Source of the DNA: Escherichia coli
GTDB taxonomy: Bacteria > Pseudomonadota > Gammaproteobacteria > Enterobacterales > Enterobacteriaceae
DNA length: 64,000 nt
Assembly: GCF_013122565.1 (NCBI RefSeq)
Contig: NZ_CP053258.1
Reading direction: 5' to 3' (one strand)
Numbering within the stretch: the first letter of the stretch is position 1; each line of letters starts with the position of its first letter. Position numbers and translations under genes: made by a program. Shown here in pieces: positions 2,730-16,474 of the stretch. The notes under the pieces are model-generated. The model was not told the DNA's origin and searched no databases. It worked only from the letters and a program-made list of their open reading frames with translations.

Positions 2730-3179
2730 TTAATGCTTCAAGGGGAATGACTTCATCAGTAATTCTTCTAAAGAAGAATATAAAAATTCCATTTCATAAG
2801 AGTCATGCAGAAAAACAAATATCTTACCATCTGTATTCATAAGAATAGGGTTTCCGCAGCCATCATCTGAAATAGCATAAAATGAATTCAATATATTTTT
2901 ATCAAGATCTTTATATATTTCCCTAAACTTCAGAGTAAGATCAACTACAGAAGCCTTTCCTACTAAGGAACCATTTTTAAAGGCATGTATAGCTATGCCA
3001 CCAAAGGCCCCACCAAATTTCTTAATAAACTCAATATATTGTATATTGAATTTAATATTTAATATTTTTTCAGCCTGAATGATCTCCTCATCAGAAGCTG
3101 GTATACCATATAGGACCATATCTTGGTCAGATGTTATCTCATCTCTGACTCTTGCTAGCAATTCTTCATTCATACGCAA
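2730..3179 (-). CDS. putative immunity protein (SMI1/KNR4, SUKH-like) for orphan rhs module 4
   Basis: 149 aa AT-rich ORF directly downstream of and overlapping the rhs tip; SUKH-like pattern. Confidence 0.55.
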   Translation of the reverse strand: MRMNEELLARVRDEITSDQDMVLYGIPASDEEIIQAEKILNIKFNIQYIEFIKKFGGAFGGIAIHAFKNGSLVGKASVVDLTLKFREIYKDLDKNILNSFYAISDDGCGNPILMNTDGKIFVFLHDSYEMEFLYSSLEELLMKSFPLKH

Positions 3180-4297
3180 CCGCCCCCTCTATTGCTTAAA
3201 ACTTTTTCAGCTTGTGATTTCCAGAATTCTTTTTTCCACAGGTTAAATTCTTGACGATTATTTATACCTGAACCTTTTTTATTTCCATTTGGGTGCTGAC
3301 CAGCGTTATTTGTACTTGAACCATGATGTTTATCTGGCATAGCAGTAATTGGCCCTTGTGATTGCTGCCTGTCATGGTGCAATACTATTACATTCCCTTG
3401 CCTATCGCTCGGAGATAAACCAAATGGATGAGGAGCATCATCACTGTTCATAAAAATAATTCTATTAAGCTCGGAATCACTTAAGTGACTTAAATCCGTG
3501 TAACCTGATACATCTAAAGTTAATCCTCTGCTATCAGTAAAAGTAACAGTTAAACCCAGAGGATCGATCCAACTTATTGGATTAGGCGCATATTGGTATA
3601 AGTTTATCCCACCCGCCAGCCCTATCGGGTCCTGACTGATAAACCTCCCGCACTCCGGCGCATAATACCTGAACAGATTGTAATGCAGTCCCGTCTCTTC
3701 ATCATAATACTGCCCCGGCAGCCGCAGCGGTTGCTCAAAGTACGCCCCGCTGTTGCTGATGTCGCCCCGGTTTTCACCAAATCCCGCCTGATAGCCCGCC
3801 CACACCAGCGTCCCGTCCGCCGCGGTCACCTCCTGTACCGTGCCCGTCAGGTCCGTGTGGTAATACCAGATTTTTTGACTCTCTCCGCGCCCGGTGATGG
3901 CGGCCACCGGCGTGTACGGCTGTTCCGCGTCGTACAGGTATGTCCGCTTTCCCTGCCACGTTGTCTCCTGCAACAGCCGGAACCCTTCCCACACAAACGT
4001 TGTCCGGCTTCGTTCTCCCCGGTCGGTATGGAGATTGCTGGTCGCCTTGCTGATGCGCCTGCCCAGCGCATCATACTGATACCGCGTCTCGCTGTTGCTG
4101 CTGATGACCCGCGTTAACTGACCCTGCGCGTTCCACTCCAGCTGTTGGTCCCTGCGCTCTGTCAGTTCGCCCCATTCGTTATAGCGGTAACGGTCACGCC
4201 CGTAGCCCGGCAGGCGGTTATCCGGCACCGCTCCCTGATGCTCATCCGTCAGCAGGTTGCCCGCTTTGTCGTAATAATAATGGTCATGGTCGTACAT
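3170..4297 (-). CDS. orphan Rhs C-terminal fragment 4: core repeat, DPLGL, His-rich HNH-like tip
   Basis: About 0.75 kb near-identical to the 3' core of the main rhs (homology to ~4335), then a divergent tip with VLHHDRQQSQGP...KHHG; no N-terminus of its own. Confidence 0.7.
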   Translation of the reverse strand: MYDHDHYYYDKAGNLLTDEHQGAVPDNRLPGYGRDRYRYNEWGELTERRDQQLEWNAQGQLTRVISSNSETRYQYDALGRRISKATSNLHTDRGERSRTTFVWEGFRLLQETTWQGKRTYLYDAEQPYTPVAAITGRGESQKIWYYHTDLTGTVQEVTAADGTLVWAGYQAGFGENRGDISNSGAYFEQPLRLPGQYYDEETGLHYNLFRYYAPECGRFISQDPIGLAGGINLYQYAPNPISWIDPLGLTVTFTDSRGLTLDVSGYTDLSHLSDSELNRIIFMNSDDAPHPFGLSPSDRQGNVIVLHHDRQQSQGPITAMPDKHHGSSTNNAGQHPNGNKKGSGINNRQEFNLWKKEFWKSQAEKVLSNRGGGCV

Positions 4298-4698: not shown

Positions 4699-6315
4699 TT
4701 AACAAGATCTAATAGCATTTGATGGGACATGGCCTTCCACAAGTACTTCTCCAGAACTAACTGCATAGTTACGGGCTGGTCCTTTTAATCCAGCATCCGT
4801 TGCTTTCTCTACCGTGGATAAGTCAATAATATTCCGATTACCTTTAACATCAGGAATAACATCGTCAGTATCAAATGTAACTGTAGTTTGGCCTGGTTCA
4901 CGGTATCGTACTGCTACATATTCATTTACGGTAGTTGAAATGAATTGTGAGCCTTTAAACGAATCATTACTACCATTTCTAACATGACCAGCAGCGCTCA
5001 TTCCTCGCCCCGGGTTCTTTGCAGATAGCCCCTCACTAATAGATTCATCCGCACGAATATTTCGAAATACCTTGATTAAGCCAAGAGGATCAATCCAGCT
5101 AATCGGATTCGGCGCATACCTGTAAAGATTCAGACCGCCACGGATCGAAATCGGATCCTGACTGATAAACCTCCCGCACTCCGGCGCATAATACCTGAAC
5201 AGATTGTAATGCAGCCCCGTCTCTTCATCATAATACTGCCCCGGCAGCCGCAGTGGTTGCTCAAAGTACGCCCCGCTGTTGCTGATGTCGCCCCGGTTTT
5301 CGCCAAATCCCGCCTGGTAGCCCGCCCACACCAGCGTCCCGTCCGGCGCGGTCACCTCCTGTACCGTGCCCGTCAGGTCCGTGTGGTAATACCAGATTTT
5401 TTGACTCTCTCCGCGCCCCGTGATGGCTGCCACCGGCGTGTACGGCTGTTCCGCGTCGTACAGGTATGTCCGCTTCCCCTGCCACGTTGTCTCCTGTAAC
5501 AGCCGGAACCCTTCCCACACAAACGTCGTCTGCCGCTGTTCCCTCTGGTCCGTATGGCGGCCATATGTCGCCTTGCTGATGCGCCTGCCCAGCGCATCAT
5601 ACTGATACCGCGTCTCGCTGTTGCTGCTGATGACCCGCGTTAACTGGCCCTGCGCGTTCCACTCCAGTTGCTGGTCCCTGCGCTCTGTCAGTTCGCCCCA
5701 TTCGTTATAGCGGTAGCGGTCACGCCCGTAGCCCGGCAGGCGGTTATCCGGCACCGCTCCCTGATGCTCATCCGTCAGCAGATTGCCCGCTTTGTCGTAA
5801 TAATAATGGTCATGGTCGTACATCTGACCCGTGCGACTGGTCAGCCAGCCGCTGCGGTCATAGCTGAACACCAGGCAACCGCGCAGTTTGTCATTGATGC
5901 CGCCGACTTCACCGTCTGCGTTCCAGATATAATCCCGCGCTGTCACGCTGTCTTTCTGCGCCGGGGGGTTACCGGCCTGCTGCGGATTCTGGCTGCCGCC
6001 TGGCAGGCTGCGCTGCCAGCTTAACCGGTTATCGGCGTTGTAGCCGCTGAACGTCGCCAGTTTCCCCTGGGTGCGCATCACCTGACGGTGCAGGCTGTCA
6101 CGCTCATATTCACTGACCGTGATACCGTCCAGTGCCGTCTGGAGCAGATGCCCGCTGCCGTAGTAAAGATGGCTGAGATGCTGCCCGTCCGGCAGGGTAA
6201 TGCCGGTGGGATTGCCCAGCGCGTCACGCTGATATTTTATGCTGCCGTGCACGCTGTGCTCTGCCGTCAGCCAGCCGCTGCGGTCATACGCAAAACGCAC
6301 CGTGTCCGCCTGCAA
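4699..6315 (-). CDS. orphan Rhs C-terminal fragment 3: core repeat, DPLGL, ADP-ribosyltransferase-like tip
   Basis: About 1.4 kb rhs core homology; tip has VFRNIRAD...SQFISTT...GEVLVEG, resembling the pertussis-toxin S1 R / STS / E pattern. Confidence 0.7.
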   Translation of the reverse strand: MQADTVRFAYDRSGWLTAEHSVHGSIKYQRDALGNPTGITLPDGQHLSHLYYGSGHLLQTALDGITVSEYERDSLHRQVMRTQGKLATFSGYNADNRLSWQRSLPGGSQNPQQAGNPPAQKDSVTARDYIWNADGEVGGINDKLRGCLVFSYDRSGWLTSRTGQMYDHDHYYYDKAGNLLTDEHQGAVPDNRLPGYGRDRYRYNEWGELTERRDQQLEWNAQGQLTRVISSNSETRYQYDALGRRISKATYGRHTDQREQRQTTFVWEGFRLLQETTWQGKRTYLYDAEQPYTPVAAITGRGESQKIWYYHTDLTGTVQEVTAPDGTLVWAGYQAGFGENRGDISNSGAYFEQPLRLPGQYYDEETGLHYNLFRYYAPECGRFISQDPISIRGGLNLYRYAPNPISWIDPLGLIKVFRNIRADESISEGLSAKNPGRGMSAAGHVRNGSNDSFKGSQFISTTVNEYVAVRYREPGQTTVTFDTDDVIPDVKGNRNIIDLSTVEKATDAGLKGPARNYAVSSGEVLVEGHVPSNAIRSC

Positions 6316-6488
6316 CTAGCTGTTCAGATGGTGAATTTAACTACACCTTCTGGTTATCACCGTATTCAAGTGCCGCGATGCAACTACTGGGAAACTACAC
6401 TCATTCTCTTATTATTTTTAGAAATTTTCATCTATTAAATAATACACATGACCGATATTATTTAACCCTGCTGGGTATAACTGAAAAA

Positions 6489-7340
6489 TTATTTATTTTT
6501 AATTAAATTCATTAAATCCCAAACATTGCTATCATAATGATTGAAACCTTGAATCACAAGATAAGACAATGCTTTCATATCCAACAAAAATCTGATTTTC
6601 CCGTCTATAATTTTTGTATTTTCCGTTATAAACAATCGTTCCAATTTAACAAGATTACTTATTTTAGCTACGCTTGGAATATCACCCATTTTTGAAAAAG
6701 ATATTTTTTTAATTGAAGGTAATTTACTTACATCTTCAATGATTGACACTGCCATTTTTTTGCATAAAGATAAAGACACTTCTTCTATATTTTTCAAACC
6801 ATCTAAAAAAGTCGTGTCCGAAGCCTTAGATAATCCAGATAACTTGATGCTCCTTAAAGTCTTGATAGATGATAAATTAGGGATTGTTTGAATATTGCTA
6901 TTTTTTATCTCTAATGATTGCAAGAATGATCTCCCCGCAACATGCTCTTTTTTTTCTTTAAAATCTATCAATGTTATTTTTTCCAGAGTTCTGTGATTAA
7001 ACAAATTATCAATTCCATTTCGACCTATTAATACAGCCTCTTTTAAAAATGGGAAATATGATAAATCAAGTCTCATTTTATCATCATTCAAAAGATGGAT
7101 GAGTTGTATTTTTTTCAACGAATACAGTTGTGATATATCCTTTATTTTATTGCCTGTGATATATATTTCATTAATGAAATTAATTTCATCAAGAAATGAT
7201 AAATCAGTTATAAGCGGTGACAAAACCAACCCGTTAACTTTCTTTTCCTTCATCGTGTCAACAATATGACTTGTATCGTCATGCTTTTCATACACAAGGA
7301 CACGACTTCCCCGTACACCATAATTTTCCACTAGTCTCAT
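6489..7340 (-). CDS. putative immunity protein, leucine-rich-repeat-like, for orphan rhs module 2
   Basis: 283 aa AT-rich ORF with repeated L-rich segments, directly downstream of the orphan tip. Confidence 0.45.
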   Translation of the reverse strand: MRLVENYGVRGSRVLVYEKHDDTSHIVDTMKEKKVNGLVLSPLITDLSFLDEINFINEIYITGNKIKDISQLYSLKKIQLIHLLNDDKMRLDLSYFPFLKEAVLIGRNGIDNLFNHRTLEKITLIDFKEKKEHVAGRSFLQSLEIKNSNIQTIPNLSSIKTLRSIKLSGLSKASDTTFLDGLKNIEEVSLSLCKKMAVSIIEDVSKLPSIKKISFSKMGDIPSVAKISNLVKLERLFITENTKIIDGKIRFLLDMKALSYLVIQGFNHYDSNVWDLMNLIKNK

Positions 7341-7359
7341 ATATTTCCCCTTAAATAAA

Positions 7360-8820
7360 TCAACACTCCCCCTTCACTCTAAAATCTTGATCTGAAACAT
7401 TTCCTGTATTTGGTGGTCGTTTTTCATTACTGGTTACTCCTCTTCCTCCATTTTTAGCTATTTTCATTGCCTCTAAATTATTTAGCCATTGTTTACTAAT
7501 TCCAGCATATTTATCAAAATTCAACGAATCCAACATTGCCTGAGTTAACTTTCCACTTCGGGCATGTTGCAACATTCTCTGATATAGATTTTTTGTTTGA
7601 CCTGCATACATTTTACCCGCACCTTCATCAAAAAACTCATAAATTGCTTGCCCTTTATATTTTGCAGTAACATCTCTTATTTGTTCTAAAAAATCACTAG
7701 CGAGTCTTACTAATCCCCAAGGATCAATCCACCTCAGCGGATTCGGCGCATACCTGTAAAGATTCAGCCCACCCCGGATCGAAATCGGGTCCTGGCTTAT
7801 GAACCTTCCGCACTCCGGCGCATAATACCTGAACAGATTGTAATGCAGCCCCGTCTCTTCATCATAATACTGCCCCGGCAGCCGCAGCGGTTGCTCAAAG
7901 TACGCCCCGCTGTTGCTGATGTCGCCCCGATTTTCTCCAAATCCCGCCTGGTAGCCCGCCCACACCAGCCTCCCGTCCGGCGCGGTCACCTCCTGTACCG
8001 TGCCCGTCAGGTCCGTGTGGTAATACCAGATTTTTTGACTCTCTCCGCGCCCGGTGATGGCCGCCACTGGCGTGTACGGCTGTTCCGCGTCGTACAGGTA
8101 TGTCCGCTTTCCCTGCCACGTTGTCTCCTGCAACAGCCGGAACCCTTCCCACACAAACGTCGTCCGCCGCTGTTCCCTCTGGACCGTATGGCGGCCATAT
8201 GTCGCCTTGCTGATGCGCCTGCCCAGCGCATCATACTGATACCGCGTCTCGCTGTTGCTGCTGATGACCCGCGTTAACTGGCCCTGCGCGTTCCACTCCA
8301 GTTGCTGGTCCCTGCGCTCTGTCAGTTCGCCCCATTCGTTATAGCGGTAACGGTCACGCCCGTAGCCCGGCAGGCGGTTATCCATCACCGCGCTCTGATA
8401 CTCGTCCGTCAGCAGATTGCCCGCTTTGTCGTAATAATAATGGTCATGGTCGTACATCTGCCCCGTGCGGCTGGTCAGCCAGCCGCTGCGGTCATACGCA
8501 AAGCGCACCGTGTCCGCCTGCATGTGGTGCAGCCGTTCCCCTTCTTTCGTCGGGGTGAGCGTCACTTCCGTTATCTGGTCAAGACGGTTGTAGCTGAAGG
8601 TCCGTGTACTGTGCTGCGTGTCACTGCGCAACAGGCGGCCCAGCGCATCACGCTCCTGCCGCTCATTACGCCCCCCGCCTTCTGTACCCTGCGTCTGGAT
8701 GATGACCGGATACCCGCCCGCATTCAGCGCCAAATGGCTGAGAGAAGCGGGATTTGAGATCGGCACGGGCGTTACCGTGAAGATCTCGGAGGGATGTCTG
8801 ATCCTGCTTGCGGATAACAA
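7360..8820 (-). CDS. orphan Rhs C-terminal fragment 2: core repeat, DPWGL, GIY-YIG-like tip
   Basis: About 1.1 kb rhs core homology; tip has AIYEFFDEGAGKMYAGQTKNLYQRMLQH; the first ~30 codons are antisense to the SymE-like remnant. Confidence 0.7.
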   Translation of the reverse strand: MLSASRIRHPSEIFTVTPVPISNPASLSHLALNAGGYPVIIQTQGTEGGGRNERQERDALGRLLRSDTQHSTRTFSYNRLDQITEVTLTPTKEGERLHHMQADTVRFAYDRSGWLTSRTGQMYDHDHYYYDKAGNLLTDEYQSAVMDNRLPGYGRDRYRYNEWGELTERRDQQLEWNAQGQLTRVISSNSETRYQYDALGRRISKATYGRHTVQREQRRTTFVWEGFRLLQETTWQGKRTYLYDAEQPYTPVAAITGRGESQKIWYYHTDLTGTVQEVTAPDGRLVWAGYQAGFGENRGDISNSGAYFEQPLRLPGQYYDEETGLHYNLFRYYAPECGRFISQDPISIRGGLNLYRYAPNPLRWIDPWGLVRLASDFLEQIRDVTAKYKGQAIYEFFDEGAGKMYAGQTKNLYQRMLQHARSGKLTQAMLDSLNFDKYAGISKQWLNNLEAMKIAKNGGRGVTSNEKRPPNTGNVSDQDFRVKGEC

Positions 8821-8914
8821 CGAAGTACAGGAACTGCGCAGGGAGCTTTATCAGGTTAAACAGGCAGTTAAGGGGATGCGGGACGGGATGTTTAGTGTGC
8901 TGAACGAAAGTTAA
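8729..8914 (+). pseudogene. SymE-like 3' remnant (last ~62 codons) fused to an rhs-fragment boundary
   Basis: Near-identical to 2497..2683; homology to the first copy starts abruptly at the junction with rhs-core sequence (~8728). Confidence 0.45.
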
Positions 8915-8922
8915 ATAATAAA

Positions 8923-8955
8923 AAAGCCGGGAAGGTAAATAAGCTTCCCGGCTTT
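8923..8955. terminator. bidirectional intrinsic terminator hairpin
   Basis: 12 bp perfect stem aaagccgggaag / cttcccggcttt with 9 nt loop, flanked by A-run and T-run. Confidence 0.6.
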
Positions 8956-8975
8956 CCACAACAATTTTAACTTAA

Positions 8976-9464
8976 TTAATCATAAGCATCGCCGTAATTT
9001 TCATATTTCCAATAAATATATTTACCACCTGAGCTATATAATTTATGCAATAATTCTGTAAAAGTCATTGCAATAATTGGACAACTACCTACAACGCCAT
9101 GTATCTCATAATTGCTATCATAACAGCGTCCATTTCTTTCTGTAGAAAAATCAATGGATAAATAATCATTATTATCGGTCCTGCAAATTAAGTACCATGA
9201 AGATGATATATCATCCTCACATGGCTCACCAACTATAAATTTATTTGCCTGTAATATTTCATTATTTTTCAAAATAGTGAAGGAGATTTCCTGCTCTTCA
9301 GAGCAAAACAATTTTATTCCATTACATATTTTGTAAAAACGAACAACATCATCAGGATATTTTAAATAATCAGATGGTAATAAAGGCAAATTACCATCTG
9401 GTGGAATAACTTCACATCTGTTATCATTTTTTATCAAGTCAAGTAATTCATCAATGCCATTCAT
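8976..9464 (-). CDS. putative immunity protein (SUKH-like) for orphan rhs module 1
   Basis: 162 aa AT-rich ORF downstream of the orphan tip; LLPSDYLKY...FYKICNG pattern. Confidence 0.5.
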   Translation of the reverse strand: MNGIDELLDLIKNDNRCEVIPPDGNLPLLPSDYLKYPDDVVRFYKICNGIKLFCSEEQEISFTILKNNEILQANKFIVGEPCEDDISSSWYLICRTDNNDYLSIDFSTERNGRCYDSNYEIHGVVGSCPIIAMTFTELLHKLYSSGGKYIYWKYENYGDAYD

Positions 9465-9473
9465 ATTACCACC

Positions 9474-11312
9474 TTAAAAAATAACAGTATCAAACTTCCC
9501 AGAGTATATAAACTGGTTCAATGCCCGGTAATATGCTTCCCTACTGGCAACAGGAACATTTGCGGCATCAAACATTCGTTCAGTAAGATCTTTCATTTCT
9601 CTGCTACTTACTGTTGTCCAATCCACTTTCCCACCAACTCTTCTTCCGGTTTTCTGCTCTAACCAATCTCTATATACTTTTTTTGTTGCAGCATGATTAG
9701 CCTCGGATAATGCAATTGTTGGTGACTTTGAAGGATATTTCCCTCCATAAGATGGCACATTCTTAGACATCCAAATATCAAGCACACCATGATGGTTTTC
9801 TAAAGAGGAATTAATTGGTCGATAAGGAACAACATCAAACTCTTTAACTTCACCGCACTTAAGTCCAAGGGGATCTATCCACCCCAGCGGATTCGGCGCA
9901 TAAGCATACTGGTTCAGCCCACCCGCCAGCCCTATCGGGTCCTGGCTTACGAACCGCCCGCACTCCGGCGCATAATACCTGAACAGATTATAGTGCAGCC
10001 CCGTCTCTTCATCATAATACTGCCCCGGCAGCCGCAGCGGCTGTTCAAAGTACGCCCCGCTGTTGCTGATATCGCCCCGGTTTTCGCCAAATCCCGCCTG
10101 GTAGCCCGCCCACACCAGCGTCCCGTCCGCCGCGGTCACCTCCTGTACCGTGCCCGTCAGGTCCGTGTGGTAATACCAGATTTTTTGACTCTCTCCGCGC
10201 CCCGTGATGGCGGCCACCGGCGTGTACGGCTGTTCCGCGTCGTACAGGTATGTCCGCTTTCCCTGCCACGTTGTCTCCTGCAACAGCCGGAACCCTTCCC
10301 ACACAAACGTTGTCCGGCTTCGTTCTCCCCGGTCCGTATGGCGGCCATATGTCGCCTTGCTGATGCGCCTGCCCAGCGCATCATACTGATACCGCGTCTC
10401 GCTGTTGCTGCTGATGACCCGCGTTAACTGGCCCTGCGCGTTCCACTCCAGCTGCTGGTCCCTGCGCTCTGTCAGTTCGCCCCATTCGTTATAGCGGTAG
10501 CGGTCACGCCCGTAGCCCGGCAGGCGGTTATCCATCACCGCTCCCTGATATTCATCCGTCAGCAGGTTGCCCGCTTTATCGTAATAATAATGGTCATGGT
10601 CATACATCTGCCCCGTGCGGCTGGTCAGCCAGCCGCTGCGGTCATAGCTGAACACCAGGCAACCGCGCAGTTTGTCATTGATGCCGCCGACTTCACCGTC
10701 TGCGTTCCAGATATAGTCCCGCGCTGTCACGCTGTCGCTGTGTGACGGGGGTGTGGCTGTCTGCTGTGGGTTCTGGCTGCCGCCTGGCAGGCTGCGCTGC
10801 CAGCTTAACCGGTTGTCGGCGTTGTAGCCGCTGAACGTCGCCAGTTTCCCCTGGGTGCGCATCACCTGACGGTGCAGACTGTCACGCTCATATTCACTGA
10901 CCGTGATACCGTCCAGTGCCGTCTGGAGCAGATGTCCGCTGCCGTAGTAAAGATGGCTGAGGTGCTGCCCGTTCGGTAACGTGATGTCGGTGGGATTGCC
11001 CAGCGCGTCACGCTGATATTTTATGCTGCCGTGCACGCTGTGCTCTGCCGTCAGCCACCCGCTGCGGTCATACGCAAAGCGCACCGTGTCCGCCTGCATG
11101 TGGTGCAGCCGTTCCCCTTCTTTCGTCGGGGTGAGCGTCACTTCCGTTATCTGGTCAAGACGGTTGTAGCTGAAGGTCCGTGTACTGTGCTGCGTGTCAC
11201 TGCGCAACAGGCGGCCCAGCGCATCACGCTCCTGTCGCTCATTACGCACCCCGCCTTCTGTACCCTGCGTCTGGATGATGACCGGATACCCGCCCGCATT
11301 CAGCACAAACAT
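9474..11312 (-). CDS. orphan Rhs C-terminal fragment 1: core repeat, DPLGL, unassigned toxin tip
   Basis: About 1.6 kb homologous to main rhs (to ~11476, where an in-frame stop precedes it); first ATG at 11312; tip ~130 aa with no recognizable motif. Confidence 0.7.
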   Translation of the reverse strand: MFVLNAGGYPVIIQTQGTEGGVRNERQERDALGRLLRSDTQHSTRTFSYNRLDQITEVTLTPTKEGERLHHMQADTVRFAYDRSGWLTAEHSVHGSIKYQRDALGNPTDITLPNGQHLSHLYYGSGHLLQTALDGITVSEYERDSLHRQVMRTQGKLATFSGYNADNRLSWQRSLPGGSQNPQQTATPPSHSDSVTARDYIWNADGEVGGINDKLRGCLVFSYDRSGWLTSRTGQMYDHDHYYYDKAGNLLTDEYQGAVMDNRLPGYGRDRYRYNEWGELTERRDQQLEWNAQGQLTRVISSNSETRYQYDALGRRISKATYGRHTDRGERSRTTFVWEGFRLLQETTWQGKRTYLYDAEQPYTPVAAITGRGESQKIWYYHTDLTGTVQEVTAADGTLVWAGYQAGFGENRGDISNSGAYFEQPLRLPGQYYDEETGLHYNLFRYYAPECGRFVSQDPIGLAGGLNQYAYAPNPLGWIDPLGLKCGEVKEFDVVPYRPINSSLENHHGVLDIWMSKNVPSYGGKYPSKSPTIALSEANHAATKKVYRDWLEQKTGRRVGGKVDWTTVSSREMKDLTERMFDAANVPVASREAYYRALNQFIYSGKFDTVIF

Positions 11313-11517: not shown

Positions 11518-16474
<4,957 letters not shown>

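Follow-up and report, generated by a model that had tools for sequence, protein, structure and literature searches.

What might a toxin gene be for when it appears to lack the means of its own delivery? The question is raised by an orphan Rhs fragment in the type VI secretion system 1 (T6SS-1) locus of Escherichia coli, contained in a chromosomal window of 64,000 nucleotides (nt) from contig NZ_CP053258.1 (assembly GCF_013122565.1). In Rhs effectors the C-terminal tip is enclosed in an Rhs shell, freed by an aspartyl autoprotease at DPxGL motifs and carried on the VgrG spike. The fragment considered here has a tip and, immediately downstream, a small gene. We asked what the tip encodes, whether the small gene is its antidote, and what becomes of such a pair when it is separated from a full-length Rhs protein. 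Our analysis makes it very likely that the minus-strand region 6489–8820 is an orphan Rhs toxin/immunity cassette, consisting of a compact GIY-YIG nuclease tip and a leucine-rich-repeat (LRR) immunity protein, and that it is unarmed in this genome.

The open reading frame (ORF) that carries the tip (7360–8820, minus strand) encodes 486 residues. The first 370 (7711–8820, minus) are an orphan Rhs core fragment: the NCBIfam models RHS_core, Rhs_assc_core and YD repeat match the ORF as far as residue 370, and the fragment is collinear with the C-terminal third of the main Rhs protein of the locus (1379 residues, 11871–16010, minus). It contains neither a PAAR domain nor an N-terminal delivery region, and closes in the demarcation motif PLRWIDPWGL (7711–7740), of which DPWGL forms residues 366–370 (7711–7725). 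The remaining 116 residues (371–486; 7363–7710, minus, with the stop codon at 7360–7362) constitute the tip, essentially as an earlier sequence-only reading of this DNA had delimited it (7360–7700). Both the PxxxxDPxGL boundary and a change in composition are present: G+C content is 59.8% for the core but only 34.8% for the tip, and 29.1% for the gene that follows. This is the sharp break usual for Rhs tips.

The sequence-only reading had seen in the tip the layout of a GIY-YIG nuclease: I-Y, then Y-A-G about 10 residues later, then Arg and His. That layout is confirmed. The string from which it was read, AIYEFFDEGAGKMYAGQTKNLYQRMLQH, is indeed present (ORF residues 392–419; 7564–7647), but it does not directly follow DPWGL as had been implied: 21 residues (VRLASDFLEQIRDVTAKYKGQ) separate DPWGL from AIY. 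Numbered within the tip, the N-terminal catalytic block (7564–7647, minus) reads AIY(24)-x10-Y(35)AG-x7-R(45)-x3-H(49), with spacings of 11 residues from Tyr24 to Tyr35, 10 from Tyr35 to Arg45 and 4 from Arg45 to His49. A further 31 residues lead to Glu80 (7471–7473) and 15 more to Asn95 (7426–7428), which together form the C-terminal catalytic block (7426–7473, minus). Expressed as a pattern ([GASP][IVL]Y x9-12 YxG x7-11 R x3 [HY]) and run on the six-frame translation of the 64-kb window, the layout has a single match, which is the site in the tip.

Relatives of the tip were sought in several collections. Run exhaustively against 1.84 billion cluster representatives, phmmer returned 17 matches; about half were repeat proteins (GDVYAIAYxGDxxDGYLKTV units) aligning to residues 33–79 by composition, and were dropped. 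A profile of the seven genuine members retrieved 44 proteins, including Rhs tips of Acinetobacter bereziniae, Erwinia sorbitola, Xenorhabdus indica and X. budapestensis, and several of the 44 already carry a PF01541 (GIY-YIG) match or the NCBI name ‘GIY-YIG nuclease family protein’. When the tip by itself was the query, a word-indexed protein search yielded no more than two near-identical E. coli fragments. In scans that took one genome per species, an alignment of three tips retrieved nothing and an alignment of the LRR partner only distant Bacteroidales LRR proteins, which indicates that the family is rare among species representatives. Stand-alone GIY-YIG proteins of ∼110 residues (P0056–P0066) share an invariant H-x-RSGKLP motif with the Rhs tips and have a conserved N-terminus, MSIYKPGRPxKYNP; one comes from a Faecousia metagenome-assembled genome and the remainder from ENA, JGI or Logan sequences.

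The profile comparisons that the sequence-only reading had proposed, against GIY-YIG and LRR models, both returned matches. For the tip alone these were Pfam PF01541 (expectation value (E) 1.4e-4, 22.5 bits), the NCBIfam group I intron endonuclease model TIGR01453 (E 2.6e-4) and RE_Eco29kI, a GIY-YIG restriction endonuclease profile (E 4e-3). Five of the seven family members individually match PF01541 at E ≤ 1e-3, the best at 6.4e-7, and NCBI labels E. coli fragments of the same tip as ‘GIY-YIG nuclease family protein’. A phmmer search of the PDB with the single tip sequence produced only chance matches (glucosamine-6-phosphate deaminase, E ∼1), and was so uninformative that a family profile was needed. 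The nine best PDB matches of that profile are all GIY-YIG domains, with the N-terminal domain of UvrC at 6e-4 and I-TevI at 5e-3. Tyr24, Tyr35 and Arg45 of the tip align with GIY/YVG/R of I-TevI and GVY/YIG/R of UvrC, and His49 with the His of I-TevI (KRWKRH). Comparison of the tip family with the stand-alone PF01541-positive group by hhalign gave a probability of 99% (E 6e-18), in an alignment that spans Glu80 and places it on the Glu of that group.

Conservation within the family follows the same positions. In 12 members whose identity to the tip is only 26–45%, no change is seen at Tyr24, Tyr35, Gly37, Arg45, His49, Lys54, Leu55, Glu80, Gly88 and Asn95, and the first motif is G[IV]Y in most of them. 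The hallmarks of the GIY-YIG superfamily are ‘GIY’ and ‘YIG’ near the N-terminus, ∼10–11 residues apart, a central Arg and a C-terminal Glu (PMC1564403); every one of these defining positions is among the invariant residues, as is the Asn of the UvrC-like lineage (Asn95). The family also has an invariant motif of its own, H-x2-S-G-K-L, which is not known from characterised GIY-YIG enzymes. An AlphaFold2 model built on the family alignment (mean predicted local distance difference test score (pLDDT) 88) runs helix, β1, β2, helix, short helix, β3, helix, in agreement with the GIY-YIG fold of three β-strands surrounded by helices, and has Glu80 in the helix formed by residues 73–86. By fold and spacing, Glu80 and Asn95 would be the equivalents of Glu75 and Asn90 of I-TevI. 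Together these data show that the fold and active-site layout of the tip are those of a GIY-YIG domain.

Two other identities were considered and ruled out. Insertion of a homing endonuclease or restriction enzyme gene does not account for a domain that continues the reading frame of the Rhs core past PxxxxDPxGL, lacks a DNA-binding extension and ends full-length Rhs proteins elsewhere. The tip is also not a Tox-URI2 domain, for which the published signature is Y, KxG and [EQ] (PMC3482391): it has YAG in place of KxG, and no Pfam match to that domain. PHROGs had no match for either the tip or the LRR protein, and PADLOC gave only a weak one for the tip (PDC-S14, E 3.5e-4).

The gene downstream of the tip (6489–7340, minus) encodes a 283-residue protein which the sequence-only reading had taken to be leucine-rich-repeat-like and a candidate for immunity. 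The first proposal is borne out and the second is supported. The protein matches Pfam LRR_14 (E 3e-4), several weaker LRR models and NCBIfam internalin models (6e-6); its structural model (mean pLDDT 92.4) has eleven short strands ∼21–23 residues apart, and is thus a predicted LRR solenoid of about 11 repeats of ∼22 residues. The best Foldseek matches of the model in the PDB are a Roco LRR domain, internalin A and SDS22 (E 7e-9 to 5e-6), and a variant of the protein is labelled ‘Leucine-rich repeat domain-containing protein’ in UniRef. The N-terminus is hydrophilic (MRLVENYGVRGSRV...), with no signal peptide visible in the sequence, so that the protein is expected in the cytoplasm, where immunity to a nuclease is required. 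The gene begins 19 nt past the stop of the tip, across a spacer (7341–7359; from stop to start codon, TGA TTTATTTAAGGGGAAATAT ATG) that includes a Shine-Dalgarno-like AAGGGG (7347–7352, minus) 6 nt ahead of the ATG. From the tip to the following Rhs fragment there is no further ORF, nor space for one.

Of particular importance is the fact that the two genes stay together elsewhere. Homologous LRR genes encoding 280–285 residues follow related tips in five of the loci collected here (L006, L008, L013, L018 and L019). In A. bereziniae an orphan tip of the family is directly followed by a 280-residue LRR protein that aligns over its full length with the E. coli protein (28% identity, E 3e-28); in X. 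indica the gene after the tip encodes an LRR protein of 284 residues (E 1e-17). On a metagenome contig the same nuclease domain is part of a 217-residue effector that is not an Rhs protein and has a hydrophobic N-terminal region; the next gene encodes an LRR protein of 285 residues (E 2e-17). The pair has therefore been kept together across genera and across delivery scaffolds. Given an adjacency conserved in four further contexts, the LRR protein is very probably the antidote of the tip.

Relatives of the LRR protein also occur on their own. Close homologues (64% and 55% identical) without an adjoining GIY-YIG tip were found in three loci (L003, 6001–6867; L004, 1699–2565; L005, 3529–4407), one of them after a 418-residue AIDA-repeat gene (L003) and one within a run of small unannotated ORFs (L005). 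Such copies may represent orphan immunity genes or polyimmunity islands.

An exact-sequence look-up links the cassette to an armed version. The 90% cluster to which the tip belongs includes a 1367-residue E. coli Rhs protein (P0071; GCA_964041915.1, GCA_965254205.1) whose gene lies after those for VgrG and a DcrB-family protein. This protein has both a prePAAR and a PAAR domain, and it terminates in the same tip (115 of 116 residues identical). In this armed locus (L018) the tip is likewise followed by the 283-residue LRR gene (264 of 283 residues identical, 93%) across the same 19-nt spacer, in which a single base differs. Over the stretch from core to LRR gene, the window cassette and the armed locus are 94.9% identical in DNA. 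Because the same tip sits on a full-length Rhs protein at this level of identity, the window cassette is a displaced, unarmed copy of a module that serves as the primary T6SS-1 Rhs effector in other strains. The two genes differ in how they have changed between the copies (window 6489–7725 against L018 8739–9975): of the codon changes in the tip, 7 are synonymous and 1 is non-synonymous (omega ∼0.03), and of those in the LRR gene, 11 are synonymous and 20 non-synonymous (omega ∼0.48), figures that come from small counts in one pair of copies and carry no significance test.

Several observations weigh against the interpretation we favour. The first concern the state of the cassette. Most of it is present in only 3 of 5426 complete E. 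coli genomes, and among the carriers it is decaying: strain GF3-3 has a stop at codon 141 of the LRR gene and Leu42Pro in the tip, and in HCP5S3_I2 the tip and LRR genes are both annotated in pieces, as split ORFs. Promoter-like sites in 6300–9000 are at chance level (7 against 5.5 expected), a result which says nothing about expression, and a terminator scan of the same interval found none. Add that the fragment has neither PAAR domain nor delivery region, and it is possible, if on balance doubtful, that the cassette is a silent, decaying relic, in which neither gene is expressed or acts and the intact frames simply reflect recent displacement from the main position. Against this, both genes of the window copy are intact, the catalytic residues and the Shine-Dalgarno-like sequence are preserved, and the tip differs from the armed copy by 7 synonymous changes against 1 non-synonymous. 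In Salmonella, moreover, orphan Rhs modules are functional reserves whose genes can be expressed (PMC3967940, PMC7043789); the first of these reports describes orphan tips becoming expressed through recombination with the main gene. The idea of a relic in any case concerns present activity and not what the genes encode.

Other points bear on the activity of the tip. Its single-sequence profile matches are modest (E 1e-4 to 4e-3, ∼20–23 bits) and fall mostly in the domain's N-terminal half; GIY begins with Ala instead of its ‘G’; and the residue three before Glu80 is Asn77 (NNLE), where the published Tox-URI1 signature [RK]xxE has Arg or Lys. A literature search found no nuclease, toxicity or binding assay for any member of the tip family. 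A substrate is not something that can be read from sequence, and a domain with the GIY-YIG fold could conceivably cleave RNA or merely bind nucleic acid, its toxicity being directed at another target; the private H-x2-S-G-K-L motif and the departure from [RK]xxE would fit such a divergence. We consider this improbable: all six canonical catalytic positions are invariant, and the characterised GIY-YIG enzymes among the structural matches are all DNA endonucleases (PMC1564403). From this uniform chemistry we infer that the tip cuts DNA, and, because it has only 116 residues and no DNA-binding extension, it would be expected to do so with little sequence specificity.

That the LRR protein is instead an accessory factor, such as an adaptor or second effector, with self-protection coming from elsewhere, is the least credible of the alternatives: its role is deduced from gene context, it has homologues beside no GIY-YIG tip (next to an AIDA-like gene in L003, amid small ORFs in L005), and relatives of the tip in a Burkholderia/Erwinia subclade are followed by an unrelated protein of ∼125 residues, so that an LRR partner is not obligatory, but against it stand the position of the gene as sole ORF before the next Rhs fragment, the short spacer (19 nt, with a Shine-Dalgarno sequence) that couples it to the tip, the retention of this adjacency not only in three genera but also in a non-Rhs effector and at the armed E. 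coli locus, the lack of a signal peptide or hydrophobic N-terminus, the resemblance of the stand-alone copies to the known pattern of orphan immunity genes, and a Stenotrophomonas LRR protein predicted to block a UvrC-like Rhs tip.

The ∼125-residue proteins of the Burkholderia/Erwinia subclade (L007, 4458–4841; L012, 708–1085) begin MG(A/D)W..EPWGNDE and are 44% identical to each other (E 3e-36). On this sequence evidence they are a candidate for a second, non-LRR immunity protein of the same toxin family. With an LRR partner in one subclade and a ∼125-residue partner in another, the family would have at least two immunity solutions.

If the cassette is a toxin/immunity pair, as we favour, its working can be sketched. 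On a full-length Rhs protein the tip would be encased in the shell, released at the DPxGL motifs (this autoproteolytic motif is mentioned in PMC11606950) and delivered on the VgrG spike. In the cytoplasm of the target cell it would cut DNA by a one-metal mechanism, by analogy with I-TevI, UvrC and Eco29kI: Tyr24 and Tyr35 would lie on β1 and β2 and Arg45 and His49 on helix 1 of the active site, with Glu80 as metal ligand and Asn95 as a buttress. The LRR protein would remain in the cytoplasm of the producer and neutralise the nuclease by binding it one to one, its concave face most likely covering the active site in the manner of ribonuclease inhibitor. The tip is unarmed here because its ORF has only 370 residues of Rhs core and no PAAR domain or delivery region; it cannot be exported in the present genome, and is deliverable only once recombination within the core that they share has placed it on the main rhs gene (11871–16010). 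Provided that it is expressed in this strain, the orphan LRR gene may meanwhile protect against kin or neighbours that carry the armed version.

The cassette does not stand alone in the locus. The window is a segment of the E. coli chromosome in which fadE, ivy and yafV occupy 1–2350, and the T6SS-1 locus is flanked by yafV and tRNA-Asp. VgrG, a DcrB-like protein and the main Rhs protein are encoded upstream, and between the main rhs gene and yafV lie four minus-strand Rhs core fragments (9474–11312, 7360–8820, 4699–6315 and 3170–4297), each with its own distinct tip at the end and a small ORF after it. This arrangement of main gene plus orphans is classic for Rhs loci, and the GIY-YIG cassette is the second fragment. 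The main tip (11874–12257, minus) is a predicted toxin of cytidine-deaminase type (Pfam Deam_C PF24241, E 1.2e-15; motif HAE...CGFC), followed downstream by a 119-residue ORF (11518–11877, minus) with no family match. The first orphan tip (9477–9860, minus) had no match in NCBIfam, the sole library scanned for it; the third (4702–5076, minus) has only a weak match to DUF7587 (5e-4); and the fourth (3173–3550, minus) belongs to the LHH nucleases (HNH/EndoVII superfamily; PF14411, E 7e-10). None of the four downstream immunity-like ORFs of the window matched NCBIfam. Two ORFs resembling the type I toxin and endoribonuclease SymE lie opposite the Rhs fragments (NF010128, E 1e-10 and 2e-8): one (2450–2683, plus) just past the last immunity-like ORF (2730–3179), the other (8618–8914, plus) overlapping the 5′ end of the orphan fragment 7360–8820. 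ORFs in related E. coli loci bear the same annotation.

Comparison of Rhs tips brought to light a peculiarity in the position of Cys. It covered the window tips that end at 11871, 7360, 4699 and 3170 (minus), with 9474 as a contrast, and those of eight further loci (L001, L002, L006, L007, L011, L012, L018 and L019). Among 24 distinct tips behind PxxxxDPxG[LW], Cys is the last or next-to-last residue in 15 (for example ...NSRGC, ...VKGEC, ...AIRSC and ...GGGCV). In eight of the remaining nine, a Cys occurs instead among the first three residues past DPxGL (KCGEVK, EKCLLS, KPCAPT, AKCKLS, SPCSTK, TPCLGL, CPIPAD and CPPKDD), and the ninth, with neither pattern, is an upstream motif match containing a second DPxGL. 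In unrelated Rhs tips the terminal and initial patterns thus look mutually exclusive, at a frequency far above chance for a residue of 1–2% abundance. A literature search found no explanation for Cys at the ends of Rhs tips; TreX is reported to contain no Cys at all.

Earlier work had already described all three elements: the class of toxin, the class of immunity protein and the orphan arrangement. URI (GIY-YIG) nucleases were first reported as polymorphic toxin domains by Zhang et al. 2012, typically on RHS proteins and with T6SS among the exporters (PMC3482391). The closest of these in kind is Tox-URI1, likewise a GIY-YIG/URI nuclease at the C-terminus of T6SS-exported RHS proteins and followed by an immunity gene. 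Of its published signature (Y, YxG, R, [RK]xxE, N), the tip has Y, YxG, R, E and N, with [RK]xxE reading NNLE. The immunity partners listed for Tox-URI1 (Imm14, Imm26, Imm44 and Imm51; PMC3482391) do not include an LRR family, however, and the tip family adds its invariant H-x2-SGKL. Candidates in Salmonella pathogenicity island 6 (SPI-6) that combine PAAR, RhsA and GIY-YIG (PMC10469887, PMC11669294) are also enterobacterial T6SS Rhs effectors with a C-terminal GIY-YIG domain and predicted DNase activity; they differ in being full-length armed effectors with a partner annotated as CdiI-like. The catalytic domains of I-TevI (1LN0/1MK0) and UvrC (1YCZ) are 15–23% identical to the tip and serve homing and repair, whereas the tip would be a delivered toxin which, without a DNA-binding extension, is not expected to cut at specific sequences.

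The sequence-only reading had called LRR an unusual fold for an immunity protein. Uncommon it is, but not new. Imm-LRR is an immunity class found beside type V secretion system (T5SS) toxins and in polyimmunity loci (PMC3482391); like the E. coli protein it has an LRR fold, is cytoplasmic and adjoins a polymorphic toxin, and it differs in being listed next to T5SS toxins. The same pairing of GIY-YIG and LRR is predicted with AlphaFold3 for Stenotrophomonas in a July 2026 preprint, where a ‘UvrC-like endonuclease’ (Rhs-Ct group C6) goes with LRR protein 314, which is also kept as an orphan immunity gene and is likened to ribonuclease inhibitors (bioRxiv 10.64898/2026.07.13.738213). That pair belongs to another genus and a vgrG6 cluster, and its likeness to the E. 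coli pair is one of description, the pairing being a prediction only. In mammals, ribonuclease inhibitor is likewise an LRR protein that shields the cytoplasm from small secreted nucleases, RNase A and angiogenin (the analogy is drawn in PMC5435912 and in the Stenotrophomonas preprint). This is a functional analogy only: the nuclease fold is different, as is the LRR subtype (here of the 22-residue internalin/SDS22-like kind), and here the LRR gene is linked to the toxin. Our literature search found no experimental work on any GIY-YIG/LRR toxin–immunity pair, and no experimentally characterised complex of a bacterial LRR immunity protein with its toxin.

For the orphan arrangement the nearest precedent is orphan rhs-CT/rhsI of Salmonella Typhimurium (Koskiniemi et al. 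2014, PMC3967940), which also consists of a core fragment, tip and immunity gene downstream of the main rhs, and which recombination within the common core can transfer to the main gene. The toxin domain there is a different one, and the E. coli cassette is known as two end states in different strains.

The range of delivery contexts in which tip and LRR protein occur together (Rhs tips in Escherichia, Acinetobacter and Xenorhabdus, and a non-Rhs effector in a metagenome) invites a broader proposal, towards which we lean only slightly: that these LRR proteins are a dedicated inhibitor family for the GIY-YIG toxin clade marked by H-x2-SGKL, that the pair moves as a unit across delivery systems, and that the LRR arc clamps the active site much as ribonuclease inhibitor does on RNase A. 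If this is true, the cassette would provide the first DNase/LRR-inhibitor pair to study, and the repeat scaffold of the LRR protein could explain fast shifts in immunity specificity (omega ∼0.5 for the LRR gene against 0.03 for the tip, from few changes).

The cassette leaves general knowledge of Rhs toxins unchanged. It is a well-supported addition to a thinly documented pairing, that of a GIY-YIG DNase toxin with an LRR protein that would neutralise it. With the orphan and armed states both found in E. coli, it is a tractable system in which to examine how LRR proteins may inhibit DNases and how orphan Rhs cassettes are stored and re-armed.

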